Assembly (NCBI GenBank): GCA_021813945.1
Contig: JAKAJD010000003.1
Coordinates: 1-43,192, forward strand
DNA length: 43,192 nucleotides
Source: a bacterium
GTDB taxonomy: Bacteria; Patescibacteriota; Microgenomatia; Curtissbacterales; GWA2-41-24
Reading direction: 5' to 3'
In this document: positions 1,836 through 30,285 of the stretch, piece by piece
Layout of the letters: every line of letters begins with the position of its first letter
How positions within the stretch are numbered: position 1 is the first letter of the stretch
Position numbers and translations under genes: made by a program
The notes under the pieces: model-generated
What the model was told of the DNA's origin: nothing
Databases searched by the model: none
Seen by the model: the letters and a program-made list of their open reading frames with translations, nothing else

Positions 1836-2313
1836 AACTAAGTGATTTCTTCAGCGCTAACTCTCTCGATTTCTCCTTGAGTTCTTTAATTCTCTTATTT
1901 CTTCTTTCTTCAATAGATTCGTTTTGTTCTGCCCCCTGAGCAAACTGTTCAGCCAATTGAACATGTTCTTCAGTACTGTGATCAGTATTTTCGTATGTCT
2001 GAACCAAATACGTTTCGTCATAAACATAAAGAATAGTCCTTGAAATTCTTTTTATATAACCTTTTTTAATGAGTGACTTTGTATATCCTGATAGTTTTCC
2101 TATCGACCAGTTTGGAAGCAATATGCTCTTGATTTCTCGATAGGAAAGATTAAACGTACGATAATGTCTACTTTTTGAAAAGTAGTTTGCTAATAGTCGA
2201 TATAGTCTTAAGAGTCTGACTTCGGGATCTAATAGGTGAGTTTCGACTAACAAAAGCTTTTTGTGTTCCCGAACGAATCCATTGAAGTTCACGTCTTCTA
2301 TTGTCATTTTCAT
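1834..2313 (-). CDS. Winged-helix DNA-binding protein (Rep N-terminal-like)
   Basis: LSYREIKSIL...SIGKLSGYTKSLIKKGYIKR pattern resembles a wHTH; located directly upstream of the LSR. Confidence 0.6.
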   Translation of the reverse strand: MKMTIEDVNFNGFVREHKKLLLVETHLLDPEVRLLRLYRLLANYFSKSRHYRTFNLSYREIKSILLPNWSIGKLSGYTKSLIKKGYIKRISRTILYVYDETYLVQTYENTDHSTEEHVQLAEQFAQGAEQNESIEERRNKRIKELKEKSRELALKKSLS

Positions 2314-2329
2314 TTTAAAGTTTGCCTTA

Positions 2330-2473
2330 TTAGTTCTTGGGTGGCCTATATATGGTTTTAAAAAAATTTAATAGTCTCGAAGCTTTTTCAATTGCTTCAG
2401 CGTTATTTAACCGGATTCCAAACTCTTGGTAATAGATCGTTTTAAATTCTTCCACGGCTTCCGGTGATGGCAC
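2330..2473 (-). CDS. 47-aa microprotein (not in ORF track)
   Basis: Manual translation from GTG 2473: MPSPEAVEEFKTIYYQEFGIRLNNAEAIEKASRLLNFFKTIYRPPKN*; starts immediately after the DUF5659 stop; positional paralog at 10875-11018. Confidence 0.75.
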   Translation of the reverse strand: MPSPEAVEEFKTIYYQEFGIRLNNAEAIEKASRLLNFFKTIYRPPKN

Positions 2474-2474
2474 T

Positions 2475-2723
2475 TTAGCTTTCTGCATATATCCTGGTTT
2501 TTAGTATTTTGATTTGGTTGAAGTATGATTGGGGATCAACTCTGAGTTTCCCTTGCCAGTAATCATCTATCAGCTTATTTAGTTTTGGTGTTTTTTTAAA
2601 ACGGAAGAGAACTTTAGATGGGTTAGATTTATCGATAGAATCTAAAAAGAAGAACAGTGAAATTGCCGAGGCCAAAGCCATATCGTGCGTACTGAACAGC
2701 TCCATACTTTTAGTAATAGTCAT
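2475..2723 (-). CDS. DUF5659-like small protein
   Basis: FSTHDMALASAI...IDKSNPSKVLFRF...YWQGKLRVDPQSYFNQIKILKTRIY; clearly paralogous to 11021-11275. Family name from recall. Confidence 0.75.
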   Translation of the reverse strand: MTITKSMELFSTHDMALASAISLFFFLDSIDKSNPSKVLFRFKKTPKLNKLIDDYWQGKLRVDPQSYFNQIKILKTRIYAES

Positions 2724-2773
2724 ATGGAGTTAATGATAAAAATCGGGAAAGGAAGTAGATATTACACCAATAT

Positions 2774-3394
2774 TTAAATCTTGGTGTTTAAGATATGCTC
2801 TCTGGCTCTACCGCGTTTGGTAATTTCATGTATTTTCTTTTTGTATCTATTTACTTCAGTGCCAACTGTAGAATAGACGGCCTCAAACGGCAGCTTATTC
2901 TCGTATTCATCTGCAATTTGTGAATGCGTTTTGGTTGTTTTTTCTTTTACTAAAGTGTTTTTTAAAGAAACATTTGTTGTTTTTGCTTTTGGCCTAACGG
3001 GCAAAAAACTTAATTTGTAATAAAACTGTTTTTTATTGTTTTTGATAAACGTAAATAATTCGTTTATCTTTATTTGTTCTCTGATGTTGATCTGAATTGA
3101 GGACCCTTGACCTTTGAGCTCTATAGGTTGGTGCTGGGTTTTTGTGGCTGGTGTAATCCGATTATGGAGTATTAAGTTCATAAAAGATGACAACCAAAAT
3201 AATTCCTGGAGATTATATCTTTGAACTAGAATCAAAGCATTTTCAAAGAGTTTCTGTTTTCCTTTTTTGTTTAGAATTTCAGATTCTTTTCTTGCCAACG
3301 GTAGGAAATCTTCGAGGAAGGGGTCAGACTCTAAAAGTTTAAAGAAGTTTATTTCTTCACGAGAAAGCCCTTTGTGATGAATTTTAATTTTCAT
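2774..3394 (-). CDS. Hypothetical Lys-rich protein, possible DNA-binding regulator
   Basis: 206-aa ORF in the same position as 11356-12207 in element B. Confidence 0.65.
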   Translation of the reverse strand: MKIKIHHKGLSREEINFFKLLESDPFLEDFLPLARKESEILNKKGKQKLFENALILVQRYNLQELFWLSSFMNLILHNRITPATKTQHQPIELKGQGSSIQINIREQIKINELFTFIKNNKKQFYYKLSFLPVRPKAKTTNVSLKNTLVKEKTTKTHSQIADEYENKLPFEAVYSTVGTEVNRYKKKIHEITKRGRAREHILNTKI

Positions 3395-3437
3395 TGTAAT
3401 AATTGATGGAAGACAATTATAAACTAAGCGAGAGGTA

Positions 3438-3884
3438 TTATTTTCTAATTTCGTCGAGCTTCTTTTTAACTTGGTATGGTTTGTCTATGTGTGTAAGAAC
3501 AATCTCTTGAAACGTAGTTCCGGCAGTATTAATAAATAGAGAGCCAGTTTTAGTAAGTATTTTGTCAAAAAATTTTTCTGATATTGTTACATCCGTGATC
3601 TTGTTGTAATCAACACTAATGGTGTTTGTAGAAAGAAGGCCCTTATGGACTAGTATTCTTTTATTAGTAAAAGCATACGCATTGGATTTTTTTAGATAAA
3701 AACCATAATAAATTAAGGCTACGATGAATGTTATTAATCCTAGCCCGAATATGAATAATAGGGGAACGGATATTACACCCCAGATAATTAAATATGTTTT
3801 GGAGTAATTACCGGAGACAGAAAATTCGTATAAGACTTTCTCCTTTTCAGATAACACTTTTTGCCAAATGTCTGTGTAAATCAT
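3438..3884 (-). CDS. Membrane protein with bacterial PH (bPH_2) domain
   Basis: N-terminal TM hairpin then YAFTNKRILVHKGLLS...KITDVTISEK...TGSLFINTAG, the typical bPH_2 pattern. Confidence 0.8.
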   Translation of the reverse strand: MIYTDIWQKVLSEKEKVLYEFSVSGNYSKTYLIIWGVISVPLLFIFGLGLITFIVALIYYGFYLKKSNAYAFTNKRILVHKGLLSTNTISVDYNKITDVTISEKFFDKILTKTGSLFINTAGTTFQEIVLTHIDKPYQVKKKLDEIRK

Positions 3885-3890
3885 GGCTAA

Positions 3891-3925
3891 ATGTGACTAA
3901 TAGTCCGTAGACCAATAGTCCACTT
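3891..3925. promoter_or_regulatory. Tandem C-box operator pair
   Basis: ATGT-GACTAATAGTC-CGTA-GACCAATAGTC-CACTT: two GAC(T/C)-N3-AGTC boxes at 3895 and 3910 (15-bp spacing, central GT), just upstream of the XRE gene. Confidence 0.8.
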
Positions 3926-3945
3926 TAGCCCAATTATGGTTTAAA

Positions 3946-4164
3946 GTGGTAAACAAATCAAGTCCGGTTCAAAAAAAGTTTGGTGAGAGAGTACGAAAGA
4001 TAAGAATTAAGGTAGGAATTTCCCAGGAGCAATTAGGTTTTGAGACGGGTTTGGATCGAACGTATATATCTGGGATAGAAAGAGGAACTAGAAATCCTAC
4101 TTTAAAGATAATTTCTAAGATCGCTAAAGCCCTAAAAGTTTCAGCATCAGATTTAATGAAGTAA
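3946..4164 (+). CDS. XRE-family HTH protein, R-M controller (C-protein)-like
   Basis: SQEQLG...LDRTYISGIERGTRNPTL; the LDRTYISGIER recognition helix is typical of C proteins; C-boxes upstream. Confidence 0.9.
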   Translation: MVNKSSPVQKKFGERVRKIRIKVGISQEQLGFETGLDRTYISGIERGTRNPTLKIISKIAKALKVSASDLMK

Positions 4165-4769: not shown

Positions 4770-5396
4770 CTACAAATGCCTTCTTATTAGACCGGCAAAG
4801 ATTCCTCTTACTTCGAAATATTTTGGATCGACATATATGTTGTTCAACTTCTTGTTCCGAGGTTGTAGCACTACTTGGCCCAAATGATTCACCCCACCGT
4901 AAATTTTTAAAGTGACTTCACCATCTACAACGGCAACGATCATTTCGTTCTGTTGAGGCACTTTTCGATATTTAATTAGGATTATGTCACTATCCCAGAC
5001 GTCGTCTTCAATCATAGAGTCACCTTTTACTTCCAGAGCATAGTAATCTTTTATGTCTCCTTTGATCATGTAGTCTGGCACATCAATGGGTTCGGGATTT
5101 TCAAACGGCTCAATTGGAGGTCCGGCTGCTATTTTTCCGAGAAGGGGTATTTGAATACTCGTTTGATGTGATAAAGAGGTAAATCCACGAGCTAGATTGG
5201 GGAGTTTTTTTATGTGGCCTTTCTTTCTTATGGCCTCAACCATTTCATGAACAGTTGAGACCGCTTTGCCTTCTTGTCTAGCCAGTTCAGAAAGACTGGG
5301 AGCATAACCGTGTTTGCGGTAGTGCGCAACCATTTTGTCTAAAATTTTCTTTTGTATTGGAGTTAATGGTCTTGGTCGAAGGGTATTGACAGTCAT
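4770..5396 (-). CDS. lexA: LexA-family autocleavable repressor (start reassigned to ATG 5396)
   Basis: LTPIQKKIL...GYAPSLSELA N-terminal wHTH; IPLLGKIAAG Ala-Gly cleavage site; GDSM catalytic Ser; VTLK catalytic Lys. Confidence 0.9.
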   Translation of the reverse strand: MTVNTLRPRPLTPIQKKILDKMVAHYRKHGYAPSLSELARQEGKAVSTVHEMVEAIRKKGHIKKLPNLARGFTSLSHQTSIQIPLLGKIAAGPPIEPFENPEPIDVPDYMIKGDIKDYYALEVKGDSMIEDDVWDSDIILIKYRKVPQQNEMIVAVVDGEVTLKIYGGVNHLGQVVLQPRNKKLNNIYVDPKYFEVRGIFAGLIRRHL

Positions 5397-5541
5397 GATT
5401 TGCGCTTGAGATAATATACCCTGAAATCTTCCGAAAGGTAAGATATCAAAAAAATCCGGGGGAAACCGAATTTGTTTGAAGGACGTTAGTCCTTTTAACA
5501 TTTAATCAATAAATCGGCATCCGGTCAAGGTGGTGATAAAA

Positions 5542-5777: not shown

Positions 5778-7103
5778 ATGGATATTCTGACCAAGAAAAT
5801 AGAATCATTCGGTTTTGATGATATAGTGACTTTTTGCAAAGAAGGTCACCGAGAAGATTATCAAATTGATTACAAAAAAGATCTTCCTTCGAATGGTTTG
5901 GCAAAGCACTTCGCCGCTTTTTCGAATTCAAAAGGTGGTTTGATCCTAATTGGTGTTGAAGAAAATAGAATCACAGGTATTCCTATTAAGTGGGATGGTG
6001 TGAATAATGATGCGAAGTCGATTGAAAGGATACATCAGTGGGCTTCAAACGTGGAGCCTTTACCGAGAAGCACAGTTCATGTTACTGAAGAGAAAAACGG
6101 AAAGGTTTTTATATTGATTCGAATATTGGAGGGTGATCGAACACCATACTACGTTCAGAACGATTCAAATCTGTGGGTTAGGACTGGAAATATTAGTACT
6201 CCTATTGATCTTGCGTCCCCTGATTATGCAGAGTTGTTATTTAAGAGAAAAGAGCAGGCTGATATCAGCCGCAATATATTTATAAAACAGACAGCCGATG
6301 TTTATAACGCGGCTTTAAGAAGGGCAGAACGAGAACGTTTGGCGAAGATTGCGAAAGAGGCAGAAGATTACAAAAAGAAAAAAGAAGCGGGAGACCCTCA
6401 ACCCATAATAGATGCATTTGCTGGCGGCTTTCATTCCCACATTTATTCAAATAAACTTGGAAGCCAAGCCTCAATGTGTACTATCATTCTACAGCCATTT
6501 TTCCCAAAGGAGGCATTATTAAAGCCTTCTGAAATAAAAGATCGAATAGTTGAAATTAGAGATTTGCAGAGAACTCCCAGAATGTATTTTCCAGATTTAA
6601 ATGTGTGGCCAATACCTCAGGGAATTTTGCGTTTTGATTGGGGGGAAAGTGATGGACAAATTGACTGTCATCAGATTTACGCTTCTGGTTTGGTTTACTC
6701 TTCAACTGATGTTTTGATGGTAGACCATGAATCTAAGAAAAAACTAATTTACTTGTCTCACGTTTTAGGAAGACTATTTCAAGTTTTGAAGGCGGCTAGT
6801 AATTTTTATCAAATTGCCGGATACCAAGGTGGTGTGGAAGGATATCTGGAGCTGGCTAATACTGAGGATATTAGCTTGGTGGGGTTTCAGCATGAGCTTT
6901 TTAACAGAGATTTGCTGGGTTTAATGCCCAGCTACCAACTTAATTTTTCAGATTTAGATACTTCAAAATTAAGTGACCCTAAAGCTTTCCAGGAATTTTT
7001 CGAGAATTATGTTAAAGAATTTTTCTGGTCTATTGGAAAGCCTGACTTGCACGAGTCTCTAATTAAGAAATTTTTGCAAGATAATCAGTGGCTTGTCACG
7101 TAA
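5778..7103 (+). CDS. Schlafen/AlbA_2-domain protein with an unknown C-terminal domain
   Basis: E...IDYKK...KHFAAFSNSKGGLILIGVEE AlbA_2 signature in the first ~150 aa. Confidence 0.85.
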   Translation: MDILTKKIESFGFDDIVTFCKEGHREDYQIDYKKDLPSNGLAKHFAAFSNSKGGLILIGVEENRITGIPIKWDGVNNDAKSIERIHQWASNVEPLPRSTVHVTEEKNGKVFILIRILEGDRTPYYVQNDSNLWVRTGNISTPIDLASPDYAELLFKRKEQADISRNIFIKQTADVYNAALRRAERERLAKIAKEAEDYKKKKEAGDPQPIIDAFAGGFHSHIYSNKLGSQASMCTIILQPFFPKEALLKPSEIKDRIVEIRDLQRTPRMYFPDLNVWPIPQGILRFDWGESDGQIDCHQIYASGLVYSSTDVLMVDHESKKKLIYLSHVLGRLFQVLKAASNFYQIAGYQGGVEGYLELANTEDISLVGFQHELFNRDLLGLMPSYQLNFSDLDTSKLSDPKAFQEFFENYVKEFFWSIGKPDLHESLIKKFLQDNQWLVT

Positions 7104-8698
7104 CTGGTTCTAACGTTCTCTACTAGGCGGAGCCAAATAGGACGCTCAAGGTATAAATGACCTGTTTGGAGCGTATTGTCAGGCTTTTCTTTAGGTTCGA
7201 AAGTTTTATCTGTAATTTCTTCTTTATTCTGCACTTTCGAATTATTTGTTATTCGTACAGCTTCGGCAAGGAGTTCAAATGTCTTTGAGTATTCAATATT
7301 AAGCTTGCCTTCGTTAAGGGTAAGTTTTGAGAATACCAGGTTGATAAGGGCTCGTTTATCCTCTTCGCTCTTTGCTTTCTCGTATATCTGTCTGGCTCTT
7401 TGGGAAAGCTCGTAAATGTTAATCCCTAATTGGTAGTATTTACTACTTGCGTGGTTGTGCTTTTCCGCAGTTTGGGTGAGTTTATCCAACTCGTCATTCC
7501 ACTGCTTTGATAACCTGTTATACGCCTCTTCGGTGACTTTGCCATCCAGCTTATCAATGTATAACTTATCCAGTCGGTTTCTCAGTAATTCTTGTTTCTG
7601 ATTGAGCTCAGCAATAACAGATGTGTAATATGCAATTTGGTCTTTGTGACCTTCTTTCAAAGCTTTTCTTATCCACTCGACAATTCGGGTATTCTTAATT
7701 TCCAGCTTCTCAAACTCACCAACAATCTGCTTTTCAACTTCATCTTGTGTTACCCAACTCTTTTGTGAACAGTTTTTATAGTGATTACAGTGACCGTAAA
7801 TAATGCCTTTATGTATTTCCCAAGTAATCGTTCCATTGCATTCTTGGCAACGAAGCACCCCCTTAAATCTATAGCTATGTTTGGCGTATTTGGGAGTATT
7901 TTTACTTCTGAGTAGCGACTGTACTTTATAAAATACTTCCTCGGATAGTAATACTGGGTGATTTCCTTTATAGATTTCTCTGTTCCAGCACATCTTGCCA
8001 ATGTAAAACGGGTCACAAAGTAGTCTATGAATTCTGCTTTTAACCACTTTACTTCCACTATCGTTTCTTAAGCCTTCCTCATACATTTTGGTTGTGAGTT
8101 TCTTGAGCGAGTATTCACCGGACGAATACAGCTCAAACATTTTTCTAATGAATCCTGCTTTTTCTTCATCAATAATGTGCGTTTTGTGCCCTTTTTCTCC
8201 TATGGTTTTGTAGCCGATTGGCGGTTTAGTGGGTAGCCAACCTTGAGCAATTTTCTCCTTTTGCCCCTTCTTTACATTCTCCGACAGCAATCTGACATAG
8301 TATTCGGCAGTGGCTACCTTTACTCTCCACATAAACCACTCATGGGACTTTGAGTTTTTGTGTAATATGCAGCCTTCCTTAGCAAGATGAATCTGGTTGT
8401 TATCGTTCTCTAAAACCCACTTATCAATGGTTGGAACATCAGCGAAGTTACGAGTTAGGCGGTCTGTGGTTTCGACAATAACCACGGAAATTTTGAATTT
8501 ACGAATGTAAGCAGCCATCTCATTGAATACTTTTCTTTGAACACTTCCGCTTGCTGATTCTGAAACTGCAAATACTTTTTCAATAGTAAAGTTATTGCGT
8601 CCAGCATAATCCCGAAGGTACTTCTCTTGTGCGGGAAGGGAATAGCCCGTTTCCTCCTGCTCTTTACTCGATACTCTGCAAAATAAAACTGCTTTCAT
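7085..8698 (-). CDS. Large serine recombinase (Int2), currently with a chimeric C-terminal tail
   Basis: FCRVSS catalytic Ser, DRLTRN, recombinase domain, Zn ribbon CQEC...YGHCNHYKNC, coiled coil; reads through the att junction (W-L at 7135-7130). Confidence 0.95.
   Translation of the reverse strand: MKAVLFCRVSSKEQEETGYSLPAQEKYLRDYAGRNNFTIEKVFAVSESASGSVQRKVFNEMAAYIRKFKISVVIVETTDRLTRNFADVPTIDKWVLENDNNQIHLAKEGCILHKNSKSHEWFMWRVKVATAEYYVRLLSENVKKGQKEKIAQGWLPTKPPIGYKTIGEKGHKTHIIDEEKAGFIRKMFELYSSGEYSLKKLTTKMYEEGLRNDSGSKVVKSRIHRLLCDPFYIGKMCWNREIYKGNHPVLLSEEVFYKVQSLLRSKNTPKYAKHSYRFKGVLRCQECNGTITWEIHKGIIYGHCNHYKNCSQKSWVTQDEVEKQIVGEFEKLEIKNTRIVEWIRKALKEGHKDQIAYYTSVIAELNQKQELLRNRLDKLYIDKLDGKVTEEAYNRLSKQWNDELDKLTQTAEKHNHASSKYYQLGINIYELSQRARQIYEKAKSEEDKRALINLVFSKLTLNEGKLNIEYSKTFELLAEAVRITNNSKVQNKEEITDKTFEPKEKPDNTLQTGHLYLERPIWLRLVENVRTSYVTSH
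7129..7144 (+). other. Hybrid att junction: right end of element A and left end of element B
   Basis: GGAGCCA core; the arm GCCAAATAGGACG (7132-7144) is the inverted complement, 11/13, of CGTCCCACTTGGC (17669-17681). Confidence 0.8.
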
Positions 8699-25353: not shown

Positions 25354-25524
25354 ATGGATTTAAAAAAGTGGTTGGTTGTTGCGATAATAGTTTTACTTTT
25401 GGCTTTGGATTTTCTGTCTTTCCACGACATTTTTGAAATGCACAGCTTACGGGATTGGCTGACACTTCTTTTGTCAATTTTGGTATTTTTCTATTTTGCC
25501 AAGGTATATTTGGAGAAAAAATAG
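25354..25524 (+). CDS. Small two-TM protein
   Basis: MDLKKWLVVAIIV...; starts 2 nt after the previous stop. Confidence 0.6.
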   Translation: MDLKKWLVVAIIVLLLALDFLSFHDIFEMHSLRDWLTLLLSILVFFYFAKVYLEKK

Positions 25525-25531
25525 TTTATTC

Positions 25532-26494
25532 TTATTGCTTGGCAAGCTCTTTTAGAAGTCCTTCGCCAACACTTATTCCAGGGTGAATTCTGAAGGCAAA
25601 AAAGCGATCTTGATTGCCGATTGTGGTTCCGGCAACAGTCGAGGCAGCTGTTCGAAATCCGGCTTCTTTAACAAGAGCTATTGTTGAAAGGTTAAATGAA
25701 CCGTAAGGATAAGCAAAAGCTGTTATTGGAACGCCCAACTTTTGCTCAAGTTGGATTTTGCTGGTGTTGATTTCTATCTTGGCTGAGTTCTCATTTAGTG
25801 ATGCCAATCCTAAATGATGAGCGGTGTGGGCGCCTATCTCGACAAGCCCACTTTGGGCAACAGAGGTAAGCTCGGCTGATGTCATGTAGTTGGGACGATC
25901 TATAAAGCCGGAAACAATGTAGGCTACTGCCTTAACGTTATATTTTTTCAGAATTGGCAGAACATCAAAGTAGAAATCTTCGTAACCGTCGTCAAATGTC
26001 AGAACCACAGGTTTAGGTGGAGCAGGTTTAATATTGTCCAGAATGTCTGCAACATCCGACATATTTATAAATGTATAGCCGCTATCTTGGAGGGTTTTGA
26101 TTTGCTTTTCAAATGTTTCCGGCAAGATATCCAAAGACATGCGAATGGTATCTTTTCTATCGCGGACGTGTTCAACATAGTGGTATATGAGAATTGGCAG
26201 ATGGAAAGTTTGCCCATCTGCTCTAATGCCACTCGCGGGCTGGCCTGTTTTGACTGCTTGATCTATGGCTTGGCGAACATCGTCGGGGATGTTGTATTGC
26301 GAGATTTGGTCTTCGTTTTGTGATTTCGTGGAGTTGCCGGTTACAAATAATTTATTGAGTTGATTTGCGCTTAGGCTTTTGTTGACAAGCAAAAAGGAAA
26401 AAAAGATAAAAAATATCAAAGCAAGAACAAAGAATCCGGATCCAAGCGCTACCATAAGTGTTAATTGCCTATTTTTTCTTGAATACTTTTTCAT
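25532..26494 (-). CDS. Polysaccharide deacetylase (CE4/NodB-like), membrane anchored
   Basis: LTFDDGY, GAHTAHH, FAYPYG motifs; N-terminal TM. Confidence 0.92.
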   Translation of the reverse strand: MKKYSRKNRQLTLMVALGSGFFVLALIFFIFFSFLLVNKSLSANQLNKLFVTGNSTKSQNEDQISQYNIPDDVRQAIDQAVKTGQPASGIRADGQTFHLPILIYHYVEHVRDRKDTIRMSLDILPETFEKQIKTLQDSGYTFINMSDVADILDNIKPAPPKPVVLTFDDGYEDFYFDVLPILKKYNVKAVAYIVSGFIDRPNYMTSAELTSVAQSGLVEIGAHTAHHLGLASLNENSAKIEINTSKIQLEQKLGVPITAFAYPYGSFNLSTIALVKEAGFRTAASTVAGTTIGNQDRFFAFRIHPGISVGEGLLKELAKQ

Positions 26495-26580
26495 TGATTT
26501 TTATATTATATCTTTGGCTTGTTGGTGTTGATAGATGGATAGGTTTGATTTTCTTATTATTTTGTAGTATTTTGTACTTA

Positions 26581-26632
26581 GGTATACAGAGTTGTGTGCC
26601 AAGACAAAGACGTCGAATCGGCGTCTTTTTTT
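26581..26632 (+). promoter_or_regulatory. ANTAR-type dual-hairpin leader overlapping an intrinsic terminator (site 1)
   Basis: P1 GGTATAC-AGAGTT-GTGTGCC, P2 GAC-AAAGAC-GTC (both hexaloops with A1/G4); P2 overlaps the 5' arm of terminator AAAGACGTCG-AAT-CGGCGTCTTT followed by a T run. Confidence 0.75.
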
Positions 26633-26646
26633 GTTGGAGAAAAATT

Positions 26647-27030
26647 ATGATCGATCGAACTGAATTAACTGGAAATGAAAGTGGATATGAAGGTCTTCAC
26701 CAAGGTTTGGTGGCAGCTTACCGGCAATCTGGTGATGGATGGCGGGTAGTAGAGTTAGCTCGGGATTTGATGCGCGAGGCATACCGGGATAGAGGAAGGA
26801 GCGGTATTATCGATTTATCTCGTAAGCCAACGCCTCAGGTTAAAAGTGCTTTGGATAATTTGGACGGGGATGTGCGTGGTAGACTTTTAAGTCTTGCCAA
26901 AAATGAACCATTAAGAGAGGGTTCCATCGAGGGTTTAAGAGAATATTTTAGTGAGCACTTTGCCCAAGCGGAAGCTGCAGTCCGTTGTATTTTAGGTGCA
27001 CATATTGAAGCAAGCAGAAGTGCTGCTTAG
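26647..27030 (+). CDS. Hypothetical protein (start reassigned to ATG 26647)
   Basis: GGAGA SD; begins 14 nt after the terminator T run. Confidence 0.7.
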   Translation: MIDRTELTGNESGYEGLHQGLVAAYRQSGDGWRVVELARDLMREAYRDRGRSGIIDLSRKPTPQVKSALDNLDGDVRGRLLSLAKNEPLREGSIEGLREYFSEHFAQAEAAVRCILGAHIEASRSAA

Positions 27031-27042
27031 ATAGAGTTTGCT

Positions 27043-27095
27043 GCACAAGGAATGTGCAAATATAGACAAAGGCGTCTTAAAAGACGTCTTTTTTT
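27043..27095 (+). promoter_or_regulatory. ANTAR-type dual-hairpin leader overlapping an intrinsic terminator (site 2)
   Basis: P1 GCAC-AAGGAAT-GTGC (7-nt loop, A1/G4), P2 GAC-AAAGGC-GTC overlapping terminator AAAGGCGTC-TTAAAA-GACGTCTTT followed by a T run. Confidence 0.7.
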
Positions 27096-27133
27096 AATCG
27101 CAAAAAAAGGCGGCAAGAAAGGAGGCGAGAAAC

Positions 27134-27361
27134 ATTAGTCGAGAAAATCTAATAAGCGCTGTGGCGAACAGAGCCGGTTTGGAGTTTAACAGAGCCACAG
27201 ATAAACTTGAACACTTGGAAGGCGCTCCACTCGATGTAGTCTATCGAGCAATAAGGGATGATCTGAGTGTAGATTGCGAAACAGCAAGGGATTTTGTAAT
27301 CGGACTGGATAGCGGCGCCTTTTATATTCCTGAACCGCGTGAGTTGGGGATAGGAGATTAG
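27134..27361 (+). CDS. Small hypothetical protein (ATT start 27134 or GTG 27161)
   Basis: AAGGAGG SD at 27119-27125 is spaced for in-frame ATT 27134; the first conventional start is GTG 27161. Confidence 0.55.
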   Translation: MSRENLISAVANRAGLEFNRATDKLEHLEGAPLDVVYRAIRDDLSVDCETARDFVIGLDSGAFYIPEPRELGIGD

Positions 27362-27384
27362 TCTAAGTGTGTTAAAATCTGGCC

Positions 27385-28074
27385 GTGGCAGATAGCAAAA
27401 ATCGGGAACTGGAGATACTTTCGGCGATTGTTGATTCAATTGCCTATAACCTAGACCTTGATGCAGTTTTGGGGCAGATTGTGGAAATTGTCCACAAAGA
27501 AACTTTGGCTGATTCTATCTTTCTTTATGTTTACGATGAGCCTTCGGCACAAGTTGTGCTTCGTGCTTCTAAAAACCCGCACCCAACCTTACTGGGGAAA
27601 GTGTCTTTGAATTTGGGGGAAGGGATAACTGGTTGGGTTGCAGAACACAAAAAAATTGTCGAGATTACCGAAAACGCTTCGGACGATAAGCGGTTTAAGT
27701 TTTTCCATGATATTCCGGAAGATAGATATGAAGCATTTTTGTCTTTACCTATTACTTTTCAGGGTAAATTGATTGGTGTTGTAAATATCCAGTATAAAAA
27801 GCCTAAAAAACACACGCCTGAGCAAATTCGGTTGCTTTCGACTGTGGCTAAGCAAGTTGGTGGAGCTTTGGAAAACGCAAGGCTTGTTTTGGAGTCGGCT
27901 GCCCTTAAGGATGCGCTCGAAACAAGAAGGCTTGTCGACCAAGCAAAAGGGATTCTTATAAAAAAGGAGGGCATGAGTGAGCCCGAAGCATATTCTCACT
28001 TGCAGAAACTTTCAATGAAACACAGAAAACCAATCCGCGAAATTGCCGAGGCGGTTGTAATTTCTTCAAAATAA
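27385..28074 (+). CDS. GAF-ANTAR RNA-binding antiterminator
   Basis: N-terminal GAF (GEGITGWVA...FLSLPI...LIGVVN), C-terminal ANTAR (RRLVDQAKGIL...EPEAY..LQKLSM...IAEAVV). Confidence 0.93.
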   Translation: MADSKNRELEILSAIVDSIAYNLDLDAVLGQIVEIVHKETLADSIFLYVYDEPSAQVVLRASKNPHPTLLGKVSLNLGEGITGWVAEHKKIVEITENASDDKRFKFFHDIPEDRYEAFLSLPITFQGKLIGVVNIQYKKPKKHTPEQIRLLSTVAKQVGGALENARLVLESAALKDALETRRLVDQAKGILIKKEGMSEPEAYSHLQKLSMKHRKPIREIAEAVVISSK

Positions 28075-28111
28075 GTAATTAAAGTAATCAAGTATTGACA
28101 TTTTGAGGTAG

Positions 28112-28131
28112 ATATGATTAAATTCACATAT
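28112..28131. promoter_or_regulatory. Candidate ArsR operator (ATATG-N10-CATAT)
   Basis: Inverted repeat between TTGACA (28095-28100) and the arsR start. Confidence 0.5.
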
Positions 28132-28143
28132 TAACATATTCTC

Positions 28144-28434
28144 ATGAATGCAAATGCTATCAAAATCTTCAAGTCTTTAGGAGACCCTACACGAATTCGG
28201 GTGCTTCTTTTGTTGCAGCACAAGAAAGAAGAAACGTGCCAAAACTTGATGAAAGAATTTCCCCTAACGCAATCTGCAATGTCGAGGCATTTTAACAAAA
28301 TGGTCGACGGCGGAGTGCTTTCAGGAAGGCGTGACGGAGCATTGTGGTTTTACAGTATAAACAGGGAATTTCTGAAAAAATCCGGAATCGATATAGACAG
28401 AATTTTGGAAAATTACAAAAAAGAAATTAATTAG
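28144..28434 (+). CDS. ArsR/SmtB-family regulator
   Basis: FKSLGDPTRIRVL...TCQNL...TQSAMSRHF...G...YSIN. Confidence 0.9.
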   Translation: MNANAIKIFKSLGDPTRIRVLLLLQHKKEETCQNLMKEFPLTQSAMSRHFNKMVDGGVLSGRRDGALWFYSINREFLKKSGIDIDRILENYKKEIN

Positions 28435-28448
28435 GAGGTGATTTAGTT

Positions 28449-28610
28449 ATGTGCTACAACTGTGGATGCGGAATGCTCGATAACGATATGGGCAATCCGG
28501 ATAACATTACAACAAGTGATTTTAAGGCTGCGGCAGGGGCTTCAAATCAGAGCGAAAAGGAAGCTAAAGAGCAAACTTTTGAGGCTTTGAAAAGAGAGTT
28601 AGGAAAGTAA
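28449..28610 (+). CDS. 53-aa CxxCxC microprotein (not in ORF track)
   Basis: MCYNCGCGMLDNDMGNPDNITTSDFKAAAGASNQSEKEAKEQTFEALKRELGK*; strong SD GGAGGTG; paralog at 29098. Confidence 0.85.
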   Translation: MCYNCGCGMLDNDMGNPDNITTSDFKAAAGASNQSEKEAKEQTFEALKRELGK

Positions 28611-28618
28611 TAATCAGA

Positions 28619-28762
28619 TTAAATTCTGGCTGATGTGATAATTGCCAGAGTGGTAATTACCATGCCAGCCGCAATTGCTGCACTTGAAGCTATAATTTTT
28701 CGGTATACGTGTTCATACATTGCCCGGTTATGTGCCTGTTGAGTGAAGTAGACGCTTTTCAT
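28619..28762 (-). CDS. Possible 47-aa single-TM protein (not in ORF track)
   Basis: MKSVYFTQQAHNRAMYEHVYRKIIASSAAIAAGMVITTLAIITSARI*. Confidence 0.4.
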   Translation of the reverse strand: MKSVYFTQQAHNRAMYEHVYRKIIASSAAIAAGMVITTLAIITSARI

Positions 28763-28891
28763 ATTAAACAGTTTATCGTGACGGCTTTAGAACAATTAAT
28801 TGGAAGCTGTAATAAAAGTGTTAATTCTTCTTAGTCTTTTTCTCATCTTATTTACACATTATTCTTACAGCCTGCTTTTAAGATACGTTTT

Positions 28892-29074
28892 GTGAAATAT
28901 AAAGTTAAAGACGATTCTTTTTTTAACAAGGGGACATTAGGACGCTGGGTTTTAATTTACCTAATAATAGCGGCGGTCATATTTAGTCTTGTTTATTACT
29001 TTCTACTTACCGTTCCCAAGGTCGACGGAATGACGCTTCGCACGCAAACAATGATTCTGAATAGACAAATATAA
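28892..29074 (+). CDS. Small single-TM protein
   Basis: WVLIYLIIAAVIFSLVYYF hydrophobic stretch. Confidence 0.5.
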   Translation: MKYKVKDDSFFNKGTLGRWVLIYLIIAAVIFSLVYYFLLTVPKVDGMTLRTQTMILNRQI

Positions 29075-29097
29075 TTTTGAGGAGGTGATTTGGGTTT

Positions 29098-29292
29098 ATG
29101 TGCTACAACTGCGGATGTGGAATGCCCGATGATGACATGGGTCAAGGGCATGCAGGAGTTGACCCGGGTGGTAAATCAATAACCAATAAAACTTTTAAGG
29201 CAGCGTCAGATTCTCAGGGAATGAGTGTGGAAGAATCAAAAAAGAATGCTTTGGATCTTTTACAAAAGACCTTGGGAGAAAAAGGCGATTAA
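29098..29292 (+). CDS. 64-aa CxxCxC microprotein
   Basis: MCYNCGCGMPDDDMG...; SD GGAGGTG. Confidence 0.85.
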   Translation: MCYNCGCGMPDDDMGQGHAGVDPGGKSITNKTFKAASDSQGMSVEESKKNALDLLQKTLGEKGD

Positions 29293-29328
29293 CTTCTCAG
29301 TGCAAAAGTCAGAATTTAGTTTTACAAT

Positions 29329-30285
29329 GTGCCTGTGGAAAAAATAACTTTAAATTCTGGCGGCAAAATGCCGGTTTTGGGCCTTGGAACGTGGAAATCG
29401 AAGCCGGATGCTGTAGGCGCGGCAGTAGAATATGCTCTCTGCGAAGCTTCTTACGATCATATTGACTGCGCCTCGATTTACAGAAACGAAGATGAAATTG
29501 GAAGGTCTCTAAAAAATGTTTTTGAAAGCGGTAAAAGAAAAAGGGAAGATGTTTTTATCAACAGCAAGCTTTGGAATACAGATCACAAGAGAGGCGCTGT
29601 TAAAGCAGCATGTCAGGCAACTCTTTCGGATCTTAATCTCAAATATTTAGATTTGTACTTGATGCATTGGGGAATTGCTATTCCTCCAAATGAAAATAAT
29701 AGGCAACATTACGGAAGGCTAGAAGAGCAATTGGACGAGAACGATTATCTTATTTTGGACAAAATTTCTGTTCGGGAGACTTGGGAAGCGATGGAAGAGC
29801 TGGTTTCTGCCGGTTTAGTTAAAGCGATCGGGGTTGCTAACTTTACTGCTCCTCAACTCGTCGATCTTTTAACCTATGCAAAAGTTAAACCTGCAATGAA
29901 TCAAATTGAATTGCATCCTTACCTACAACAGACAAGGCTTATTGAGTTTTGCAAATCACAAGATATTGTTGTGACTGCTTATTCTCCTTTGGGCTCGCCA
30001 GGGAATTATAGAGGAAGCGGTTTGCCGGTGTTGGTGGAGGATGAAACTATTGCGGAGATTGCTAAAAATCATGGTAAATCGCCAGCGCAAATTCTTATAA
30101 GATGGGCGATACAACGAGGAACTGTGGTTATTCCCAAAAGTGTTACACCAGAGCGAATCAAAGAAAATACAGATGTTTTTGGTTTTGAACTATCAGACGA
30201 TGAAATGAAAAAAGTCGCCGGTTTGGATCGGAATGTGCGTTTTGTCGACCCTTACAGTTGGTGGAAAATTCCCTATTTTGGGTAA
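29329..30285 (+). CDS. Aldo/keto reductase
   Basis: LGLGTW, HIDCASIY.NE, SKLWN, LDLYLMHW, IGVANF, NQIELHPY, IPKS. Confidence 0.96.
   Translation: MPVEKITLNSGGKMPVLGLGTWKSKPDAVGAAVEYALCEASYDHIDCASIYRNEDEIGRSLKNVFESGKRKREDVFINSKLWNTDHKRGAVKAACQATLSDLNLKYLDLYLMHWGIAIPPNENNRQHYGRLEEQLDENDYLILDKISVRETWEAMEELVSAGLVKAIGVANFTAPQLVDLLTYAKVKPAMNQIELHPYLQQTRLIEFCKSQDIVVTAYSPLGSPGNYRGSGLPVLVEDETIAEIAKNHGKSPAQILIRWAIQRGTVVIPKSVTPERIKENTDVFGFELSDDEMKKVAGLDRNVRFVDPYSWWKIPYFG

Follow-up and report, generated by a model that had tools for sequence, protein, structure and literature searches.

How might a bacterium with a genome of about 976 kb decide when to transcribe two small genes to which no protein family can be assigned? 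This question is raised by a locus at positions 26,581 to 28,074 of contig JAKAJD010000003.1 (assembly GCA_021813945.1; Patescibacteriota, Microgenomatia, Curtissbacterales, GWA2-41-24), whose positions 1 to 43,192 we analysed and refer to as the window. On one strand, the locus carries two putative leader RNAs (sites 1 and 2), the small genes p127 and p75, and a gene for a GAF-ANTAR regulator. A preliminary description had read these parts as a self-contained, ligand-gated circuit in which an ANTAR protein allows transcription past two terminators in turn. We find that the locus is quite probably a canonical ANTAR transcription-attenuation system and that the adjacent GAF-ANTAR protein is its most likely reader. 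This core reading is supported by independent comparative evidence, whereas the self-containment of the circuit is not, and read-through is probably not the sole source of the regulator. The mechanism itself is an ordinary one, like those of EutV, NasR, and AmiR.

The architecture attributed to each leader, a pair of hairpins with the second (P2) overlapping a terminator that ends in seven thymines, was confirmed almost base for base ahead of both open reading frames (ORFs). Leader 1 opens with hairpin P1 (26581-26600, + strand; GGUAUAC-AGAGUU-GUGUGCC), read from the sequence as a stem of 7 base pairs (bp) and a hexaloop with A at its first and G at its fourth position (A1/G4); its pairing is kept in relatives through U-G to C-G and G-C to G-U changes. 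A linker of AA, which is 2 nucleotides (nt) between full stems and 3-4 nt with P1 trimmed to 5 bp, leads to P2 (26603-26614, +; GAC-AAAGAC-GUC), the proposed antiterminator element, again with an A1/G4 hexaloop. The P2 loop and 3' arm make up the 5' arm (26606-26615) of an intrinsic terminator (26606-26632, +), a stem-loop AAAGACGUCG-AAU-CGGCGUCUUU at 26606-26628 in which a terminator scan counted 10 pairs, 5 of them G-C, with the T7 tract at 26626-26632. Leader 2 begins 12 nt past the p127 stop codon. Its P1 (27042-27058, +; UGCAC-AAGGAAU-GUGCA) can be drawn with a loop of 7 nt, or of 5 nt when 6 bp are paired; 5-6 nt further on, P2 (27064-27077, +; AGAC-AAAGGC-GUCU) has an A1/G4 hexaloop and is overlapped by an intrinsic terminator (27068-27095, +; stem-loop of 10 pairs at 27068-27091, T7 at 27089-27095) whose 5' arm (27068-27077) contains the P2 loop and 3' arm. 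The A1/G4 motif GAC-AAAG(A/G)C-GUC proposed for P2 can be read directly at both sites.

According to Ramesh et al. (2012; PMC3369931), an ANTAR target consists of two stem-loops of at least 3 bp with A1 and G4 in their loops, a variable linker, and a P2 that overlaps a terminator. The stems found here measure 7 and 3 bp at site 1 and 5-6 and 4 bp at site 2. A1/G4 hexaloops occur in both hairpins of site 1 (AGAGUU, AAAGAC) and in P2 of site 2 (AAAGGC), while the 7-nt loop of site 2 P1 (AAGGAAU) has the A1 and the G4 with one base extra. Most features of an ANTAR target are thus present, the site 2 P1 loop and the site 1 linker being borderline.

P2 and the terminator are mutually exclusive at both sites, as seen from the overlap of their arms and from folding. 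Leader RNAs cut off right after the P2 3' arm take up the P1 and P2 hairpins, and the minimum-energy fold of the whole leaders is P1 plus terminator (z -3.7 for site 1 and -4.0 for site 2; 0 of 200 shuffles as good). By itself P2 contributes -0.7 kcal/mol at site 1 and -2.3 kcal/mol at site 2, compared with -12.0 and -11.7 kcal/mol for the respective terminators; the default state should therefore be termination, with P2 in need of outside help. The two terminators rank as the top two terminator-like sites in 25400-29400. The gene 5' of site 1, a polysaccharide deacetylase on the - strand, is divergent, and because no + strand gene ends there, the site 1 terminator can act only in a 5' leader. 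When both hairpins were required to have an A1/G4 hexaloop and a T-run had to come after them, a scan of both strands of the window gave four matches, and among these a long stem and a real terminator came together only at site 1. With looser dual-hairpin criteria, about 23 background matches appear in the window. P2 and terminator alone are not diagnostic, since 65 of the 67 genome matches to the exact pattern GACAAAGRCGTC...CGTCTTTTT are plain terminators without P1, in many unrelated genomes.

A scan of the whole window with Rfam 15 at gathering thresholds returned one tRNA only, and a permissive scan of 26300-28300 gave chance-level matches only, with neither leader assigned. Because no Rfam family matched, we built a covariance model of our own, R1, from 16 leaders of distant loci, none of them from the window's clade. 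A first MAFFT alignment of 26 leaders had been dropped, as it mis-gapped the P1 3' arm at short linkers, and was rebuilt with 16 longer-linker sequences. Run over the whole 43 kb on both strands with filters off, R1 placed the two leaders first and second, at site 2 (27042-27077, 29.1 bits, E 7.9e-5) and site 1 (26583-26615, 14.6 bits, E 0.1), with the third match at E 1.7; a covariance search of this kind had been proposed as a check on the ANTAR reading. Site 2 had been taken for the weaker match on account of its P1 loop, and here the order is reversed, because its P1 (GCAC-AA.G..-GUGC) is nearer to the family consensus. Loops of 7 nt also occur in relatives, in P1 of locus L417 and P2 of locus L136.

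The leaders belong to a covarying RNA family. Across 163 related loci, R1 matches fall on the regulator's strand in 61 of 64 cases, and in 35 of 35 within the Patescibacteria-like subset. In P1, four of the five pairs show changes in both bases, and pairing is kept in 98.9% of cells (20-56% in slid controls); the P2 stem GAC/GUC is invariant in all 35 family members, and linkers range from 2 to 25 nt. The loop and stem consensus, CAC-AAnGnC-GUG ... GAC-AAnGAn-GUC, is also found in Pseudomonas, Nitrospira, Acidobacteria, and others, a spread over phyla that marks the leader as a generic ANTAR target.

Within the window's own clade, a GAF-ANTAR word search found 22 further proteins that are 67-88% identical in alignment to the window's regulator. 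Loci L062 and L001 (87-88%) carry a cupin-sized gene, the leader, p77, and the regulator, in that order. In L065, L066, and L135 (79-80%) and L002 (82%), the leader is followed by p122 and, after 134 nt in which a small ORF has decayed, by the regulator. The contigs of small p127 homologues show the same context: L415 has leader, p121, and regulator; L417 has leader, p149, and regulator; and L416 has terminator, p122, an unrelated 61-amino-acid (aa) ORF, and regulator, on a contig that holds only the terminator end of the leader. Wherever the DNA upstream of the regulator is visible in a clade relative, a leader lies there, although the genes beside it differ. The clade retains leader and regulator throughout and p127 in most cases, with variation in the middle gene; a second, internal leader is present only in the window. 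The region is chromosomal and syntenic with L062, running from DUF1801 through the regulator to aldo-keto reductase, inositol monophosphatase, and Exo_endo_phos genes.

In all, the regulator has 5072 homologues at E <= 0.001. Patescibacteria-like relatives (Paceibacterota, Gottesman-, Buchanan-, and Uhrbacteria) encode regulators of the same length that are 44-53% identical, with a dual hairpin and terminator 30-200 nt past the regulator stop on the same strand. The order regulator, leader, and then glnA (24) or amt (3), with targets assigned by Pfam, is found in 27 loci; these were not de-duplicated, and some pairs are one organism from two collections. Locus L218 instead has leader, glnA, and regulator, and in L217 a leader precedes a glnA gene 2.3 kb away. 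In the glnA/amt cassettes (L137-L154 and L216-L250; for example, L228 3001-5145), a TTGACA-type promoter lies just past the regulator stop and before the leader. The literature that we searched held no description of such a GAF-ANTAR-leader-glnA/amt cassette. ANTAR leaders as a class are known to cluster before nitrogen genes, including those for ammonium transporters and glutamate and glutamine synthases (PMC3369931). Another lineage, represented by L136, also has small ORFs under an ANTAR leader beside the regulator: at 205-640 it carries TTGACA-17-TATATA, a dual hairpin with a 7-nt P2 loop and a terminator, and two tiny ORFs, of 44 aa and about 37 aa, each behind a strong ribosome-binding site. 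Beyond these come another terminator-like hairpin, a TATAAT box, and then the GAF-ANTAR gene. RNA-level control of this kind had been singled out as notable for a minimal genome. It is not exceptional, being widespread in Patescibacteria-like genomes.

Several observations on the RNA family stand apart from the locus. The site 2 region 27013-27078 matched the narK RNA RF03032 at chance level (15 bits, with a gathering threshold of 43.2; E 9.5), and ANTAR-type leaders may include the Rfam narK motif. Acidobacteria and Nitrospira homologues of the regulator have no leader directly downstream. Nitrospira loci with ANTAR proteins of about 400 aa and a double GAF (L166, L170, L198, L202, L203, L257, L276, L288, and L289 at about 5280-5400; L295, L312, L314, and others) have R1 matches about 1.1-1.3 kb downstream on the regulator's strand. 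Nitrospira dual hairpins found by pattern, GCGCACAAUGGCGUGCG..GCGACAACGACGUC, are followed by a GAGAGAGG-like sequence and no U-tract, and for this reason they may control translation rather than termination. In Pseudomonas, a consensus-pattern dual hairpin and terminator at L307 (1324-2691, - strand) precedes an alginate-export-family outer-membrane porin gene and not a gene of evident nitrate assimilation. As this was the single locus checked, we make no claim that the Pseudomonas pattern matches are nitrate-assimilation leaders.

What protein, then, could act on these leaders? The gene that follows p75 on the same strand, after a gap of 23 bp as first described, encodes a 229-aa GAF-ANTAR regulator (27385-28074, +; GTG start), its domains now assigned by Pfam (ANTAR E 1.3e-21, GAF_2 E 4.7e-16). 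Residues 173-225 form the ANTAR domain (PF03861), in a match that covers positions 2-54 of the 54-position profile and scores 76.6 bits where the cut-off is 27.3; the domain is homologous to the solved domains of 1s8n (Rv1626), 6wsh (EutV-type), 4akk (NasR, E 6e-7), and 1qo0 (AmiR, E 7e-6). This is the sole ANTAR gene among the scanned ORFs of the window, and both leaders lie less than 800 nt upstream of it on the same strand.

The N-terminal input domain matches GAF_2, GAF, and GAF_3 across residues 23-164. Among solved structures, its nearest relative is PtsP/EI-Ntr (3ci6, E 1.5e-20; also 3trc), and NCBIfam gives PtsP at E 1e-16 and NifA at E 2e-10. The NifA GAF domain binds 2-oxoglutarate. 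The EI-Ntr GAF domain binds glutamine (PMC4848567). Given this likeness and the glnA/amt context of the relatives, we would guess, tentatively and at somewhat less than an even chance, that the GAF domain responds to nitrogen status as reported by glutamine and/or 2-oxoglutarate; read-through would then be expected under nitrogen limitation. No GAF-ANTAR protein had been characterized as of 2012 (PMC3369931), and we found no later characterization of one in the literature searched.

The supply of the regulator bears on how the circuit might start. Ahead of leader 1 lies a candidate promoter, TTGATT-17-TATTTT (26545-26573, +), with a putative start at about 26580, just before P1. The first, second, and sixth bases of its -10 hexamer at 26568-26573 (T, A, and T at 26568, 26569, and 26573) are invariant in six aligned clade leaders. 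It falls under the threshold of a consensus scanner, which lists TTGAAT-17-TATATT at 26479-26507. If the candidate is correct, P1 would form at the very 5' end of the transcript. With the same scanner, neither the stretch from one terminator to the other nor the DNA ahead of the regulator gave a sigma-70-like site. An extended -10-like box, TGtTAAAAT (27370-27378, +), nevertheless stands 6 nt before the GTG start as a candidate regulator promoter, proposed from its conservation. Such a box precedes the regulator start by 6-8 nt in all seven loci compared, namely the window and six clade relatives. Six of the boxes have the form TGnTA(A/G)AAT; in L417, the -10 hexamer is kept and the TG is out of register. 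T..TA.AAT is the sole conserved block in regulator flanks that are otherwise 57% identical, and no Shine-Dalgarno sequence occurs between the box and the start. The pattern by itself is no more frequent in the window than expected (6 against 6.8), so the case for a promoter rests on this conservation, which suggests an extended -10 promoter dedicated to the regulator and a leaderless transcript. Many distant GAF-ANTAR genes likewise start 4-10 nt past a -10-like hexamer (for example, TATAAT, 7 nt, ATG) without a Shine-Dalgarno sequence (L146, L150, L216, L220, L223, L225, L227, and L231), suggesting leaderless mRNAs across the regulator family. Such a promoter would provide a basal supply without read-through and so solve the problem of bootstrapping a regulator that sits behind its own two terminators; it would also weaken the strict reading of a cascade into the regulator gene.

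Taken together, these parts could work as follows. Transcription would start at about 26580, and the nascent RNA would form P1 and then the weak P2. Without protein, the terminator, which shares the P2 loop and 3' arm, would displace P2, and polymerase would halt at the T7 tract. With active regulator, we infer that an ANTAR dimer would sit on both A1/G4 loops and their closing C-G pairs, hold P2 in place, and so occupy the 5' arm of the terminator, allowing read-through into p127. The second checkpoint, 12 nt past the p127 stop, would gate p75 and transcription into the regulator 23 bp further on. Basal supply from the regulator's probable own extended -10 promoter would prime the system, and read-through would add positive feedback. 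The positive feedback onto the regulator proposed earlier accordingly remains plausible as an addition, but the conserved extended -10-like box makes it probable that read-through is not the sole source of the protein.

Known ANTAR systems offer close parallels to this arrangement. In Pseudomonas aeruginosa, the amiE leader holds a single terminator before an operon that includes the antiterminator gene amiR, such that read-through feeds back on the regulator. The window shares a homologous ANTAR domain with AmiR (1qo0) and differs in having two terminators in series and probably a separate regulator promoter; moreover, AmiR is sequestered by AmiC, whereas the regulator here has a ligand-binding domain of its own. 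The EutV/EutW system of Enterococcus faecalis resembles it in RNA design, with dual A1/G4 hairpins and a P2 that overlaps the terminator 5' arm in the eutP, eutG, eutS, and eutA leaders (PMC3369931). The eut locus, like the window, has several leaders in series, and the EutV ANTAR protein acts as a dimer. EutV, however, depends on a phosphorylated receiver and a partner kinase where the present protein fuses GAF to ANTAR, and the targets here are the small genes p127 and p75 rather than genes for ethanolamine utilization. NasR of Klebsiella oxytoca, which acts on the nasF leader, is similar as a one-component sensor-ANTAR fusion directed at a leader terminator, in its nitrogen theme, and in its homologous ANTAR domain (4akk), and the A1 and G4 of the nasF hexaloop are required (PMC3369931). 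NasR senses nitrate and nitrite through a NIT domain and is encoded upstream of its target, in contrast to the GAF domain and downstream gene found here. Closest of all are the Patescibacteria-like glnA/amt cassettes, with the same protein family, the same R1 RNA family, and, in L151, L226, L232, and L250, an identical P2 (GAC-AAAGAC-GUC). In these cassettes, the leader comes after the regulator and before glnA or amt, whereas in the window's clade it comes before p127 and/or a small ORF, and the regulator follows.

Some of our results weigh against the ANTAR reading. P1 of site 2 lacks a strict hexaloop. The site 1 linker of 2 nt lies below the 5-12 nt of natural eut leaders, in which linkers of 3 or 14 nt abolished induction (PMC3369931), the 3-nt case being a eutP linker that killed induction by EutV. 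Taken alone, site 1 is a modest R1 match at E about 0.1, and with no dedicated ANTAR-target family matched in Rfam 15, there is no curated score to set beside it. P2 does not covary, so its pairing is argued from conservation and analogy. The alignment in which P1 pairs were counted was fitted to R1, and its seeds came from a scanner that demands pairing; the strand and position statistics are independent of both. Neither glnA nor amt is present in the window or in the clade loci examined, which leaves the nitrogen signal to GAF similarity and to the targets of relatives.

Could the hairpins and terminators be unregulated, with site 2 a plain terminator for p127 and the likeness to ANTAR targets a coincidence? 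The prevalence of P1-less matches to the exact pattern (65 of 67), the start of site 2 so soon (12 nt) after a stop codon, and the loose-scan background of about 23 would allow it. We consider it very improbable, however, as a model trained on other loci ranks these two sites above all else in the window, both lie within 800 nt of the only ANTAR gene among the scanned ORFs and on its strand, the P1-P2-terminator unit persists amid changing flanks in all clade relatives that have upstream DNA, and the site 1 terminator ends no gene. Only slightly less improbable is that the attenuators are real and are read by something else, such as the product of a distant ANTAR gene or an RNA that senses a small molecule or tRNA, with the GAF-ANTAR gene a mere passenger in the operon. 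Part of the genome lies beyond our view, and with one ANTAR-target consensus across phyla, specificity cannot be read from sequence. Yet leader and regulator adjoin in dozens of loci, in different lineages and in three gene orders, and leaders of about 50 nt are too short for a riboswitch or T-box, and neither matched Rfam.

The third possibility contests only the claim of a self-contained circuit and is compatible with the mechanism: the module may be the visible part of a larger nitrogen regulon, with its main targets (glnA, amt, or others) behind leaders of the same sort elsewhere in the genome and p127 and p75 as accessories. We put this at about an even chance. ANTAR regulons with many leaders exist (PMC3369931), the 27 related loci have a leader followed by glnA or amt beside the regulator, and the window covers 43 kb of 975,962 bp. 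The absence of glnA and amt from the window and the examined clade loci speaks against it, as does the exact P2-terminator pattern, which gave one site per genome in the two clade genomes of our collection, although diverged leaders would escape that pattern. Self-containment is in any case not established, and because the regulator family controls glnA or amt in those 27 loci, further targets of this regulator elsewhere in the genome are likely. An ANTAR attenuation system read by the neighboring GAF-ANTAR protein is our preferred account of the locus with or without such targets.

The genes proposed to be under this control have few homologues. The first behind the leaders, p127 (26647-27030, +; 127 aa), starts at an ATG with GGAG 8 nt before it. 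A longer ORF of 190 aa (26458-27030) was rejected, as it would span the leader and as both homologues and the ribosome-binding site favor the ATG at 26647. Homologues of p127 are 36-46% identical and always lie between an ANTAR leader and a GAF-ANTAR gene; identity to p122 is 44-45%. An exhaustive HMMER search of 1.84 billion representative proteins yielded four small homologues. Giant WD40/STAND proteins from the same search were rejected, their match being a short G-x-V-x-x-S-x-D-G-like stretch and p127 being predicted as all-helical, and a word-index protein search with p127 retrieved p127 itself only. The structure prediction called for in the preliminary description, made with single-sequence AlphaFold2, gave an all-helical bundle of seven helices (predicted local distance difference test score, pLDDT, 77.5). 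It has no fold match in the PDB (best Foldseek E 2.1), and a p127 profile against PDB sequences reached E 0.3 at best. Pfam offers only a sub-threshold HTH_32 match (E 0.0033; score 18.4 bits, cut-off 33.7) and NCBIfam none. The second gene, p75 (27134-27361, +), encodes 75 aa from an ATT at 27134, 8 nt after AGGAGG, or 66 aa from a GTG at 27161. Its single detectable homologue is the 77-aa gene p77 of L062, in the same position (BLASTP E 1e-6), and it has no family match. In other clade members, the p75 slot is decayed (L065, L002), holds the unrelated 61-aa ORF (L416), or is empty (L415). The two genes had been called orphans, which holds in that no family can be assigned to either but not strictly, as p127 has a handful of homologues in the same context and p75 has one.

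It is tempting, if speculative, to see p127 as a new small effector. It might modulate glutamine synthetase or another nitrogen enzyme, like the small inactivating factors of cyanobacteria, or act as an anti-antiterminator on the regulator, setting a negative loop over the positive one. In such a scheme, the GAF-ANTAR protein would have been uncoupled from glnA and amt to drive a private module of p127 with or without p75, and a thresholded switch would result from the tandem terminators and the leaderless basal promoter. We hold this scheme to be unlikely as a whole.

Other features of the window lie outside the locus. Downstream of the GAF-ANTAR gene, an ArsR/HTH_20 regulator (28144-28434) has its own TTGACA-18-TAAATT promoter (28095-28124) and is followed by a 53-aa protein, MCYNCGCGM... 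(28449-28610). A paralogous 64-aa protein, MCYNCGCGMPDDDMG..., is encoded 500 nt on, at 29098-29292. Neither paralogue has a family match; they could be a metal-related pair with cysteine motifs. At the other end, a tRNA (54-125) abuts a large serine recombinase (114-1802, -) with Resolvase, Recombinase, and zinc ribbon domains. Within 9 kb there are another large serine recombinase and a Schlafen/AlbA_2 protein (5778-7103, +, and 7085-8698, -), and GC content falls to 0.33 at 2001-4000. The start of the window may be an integrated mobile element.

For the organism and its relatives, the finding gives the very rare p127 family a regulatory context and a first hypothesis of function. With a leader of 50 nt and a one-component regulator of 229 aa, the system is compact enough to lend itself to tests in a heterologous host. 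An ANTAR protein with a single GAF domain and a PtsP/NifA-like sensor is common in Patescibacteria-like genomes and offers a testable handle on nitrogen sensing in ultra-small bacteria. In this respect, the wiring of glnA and amt through a covarying leader may be a more useful lead than the locus itself.

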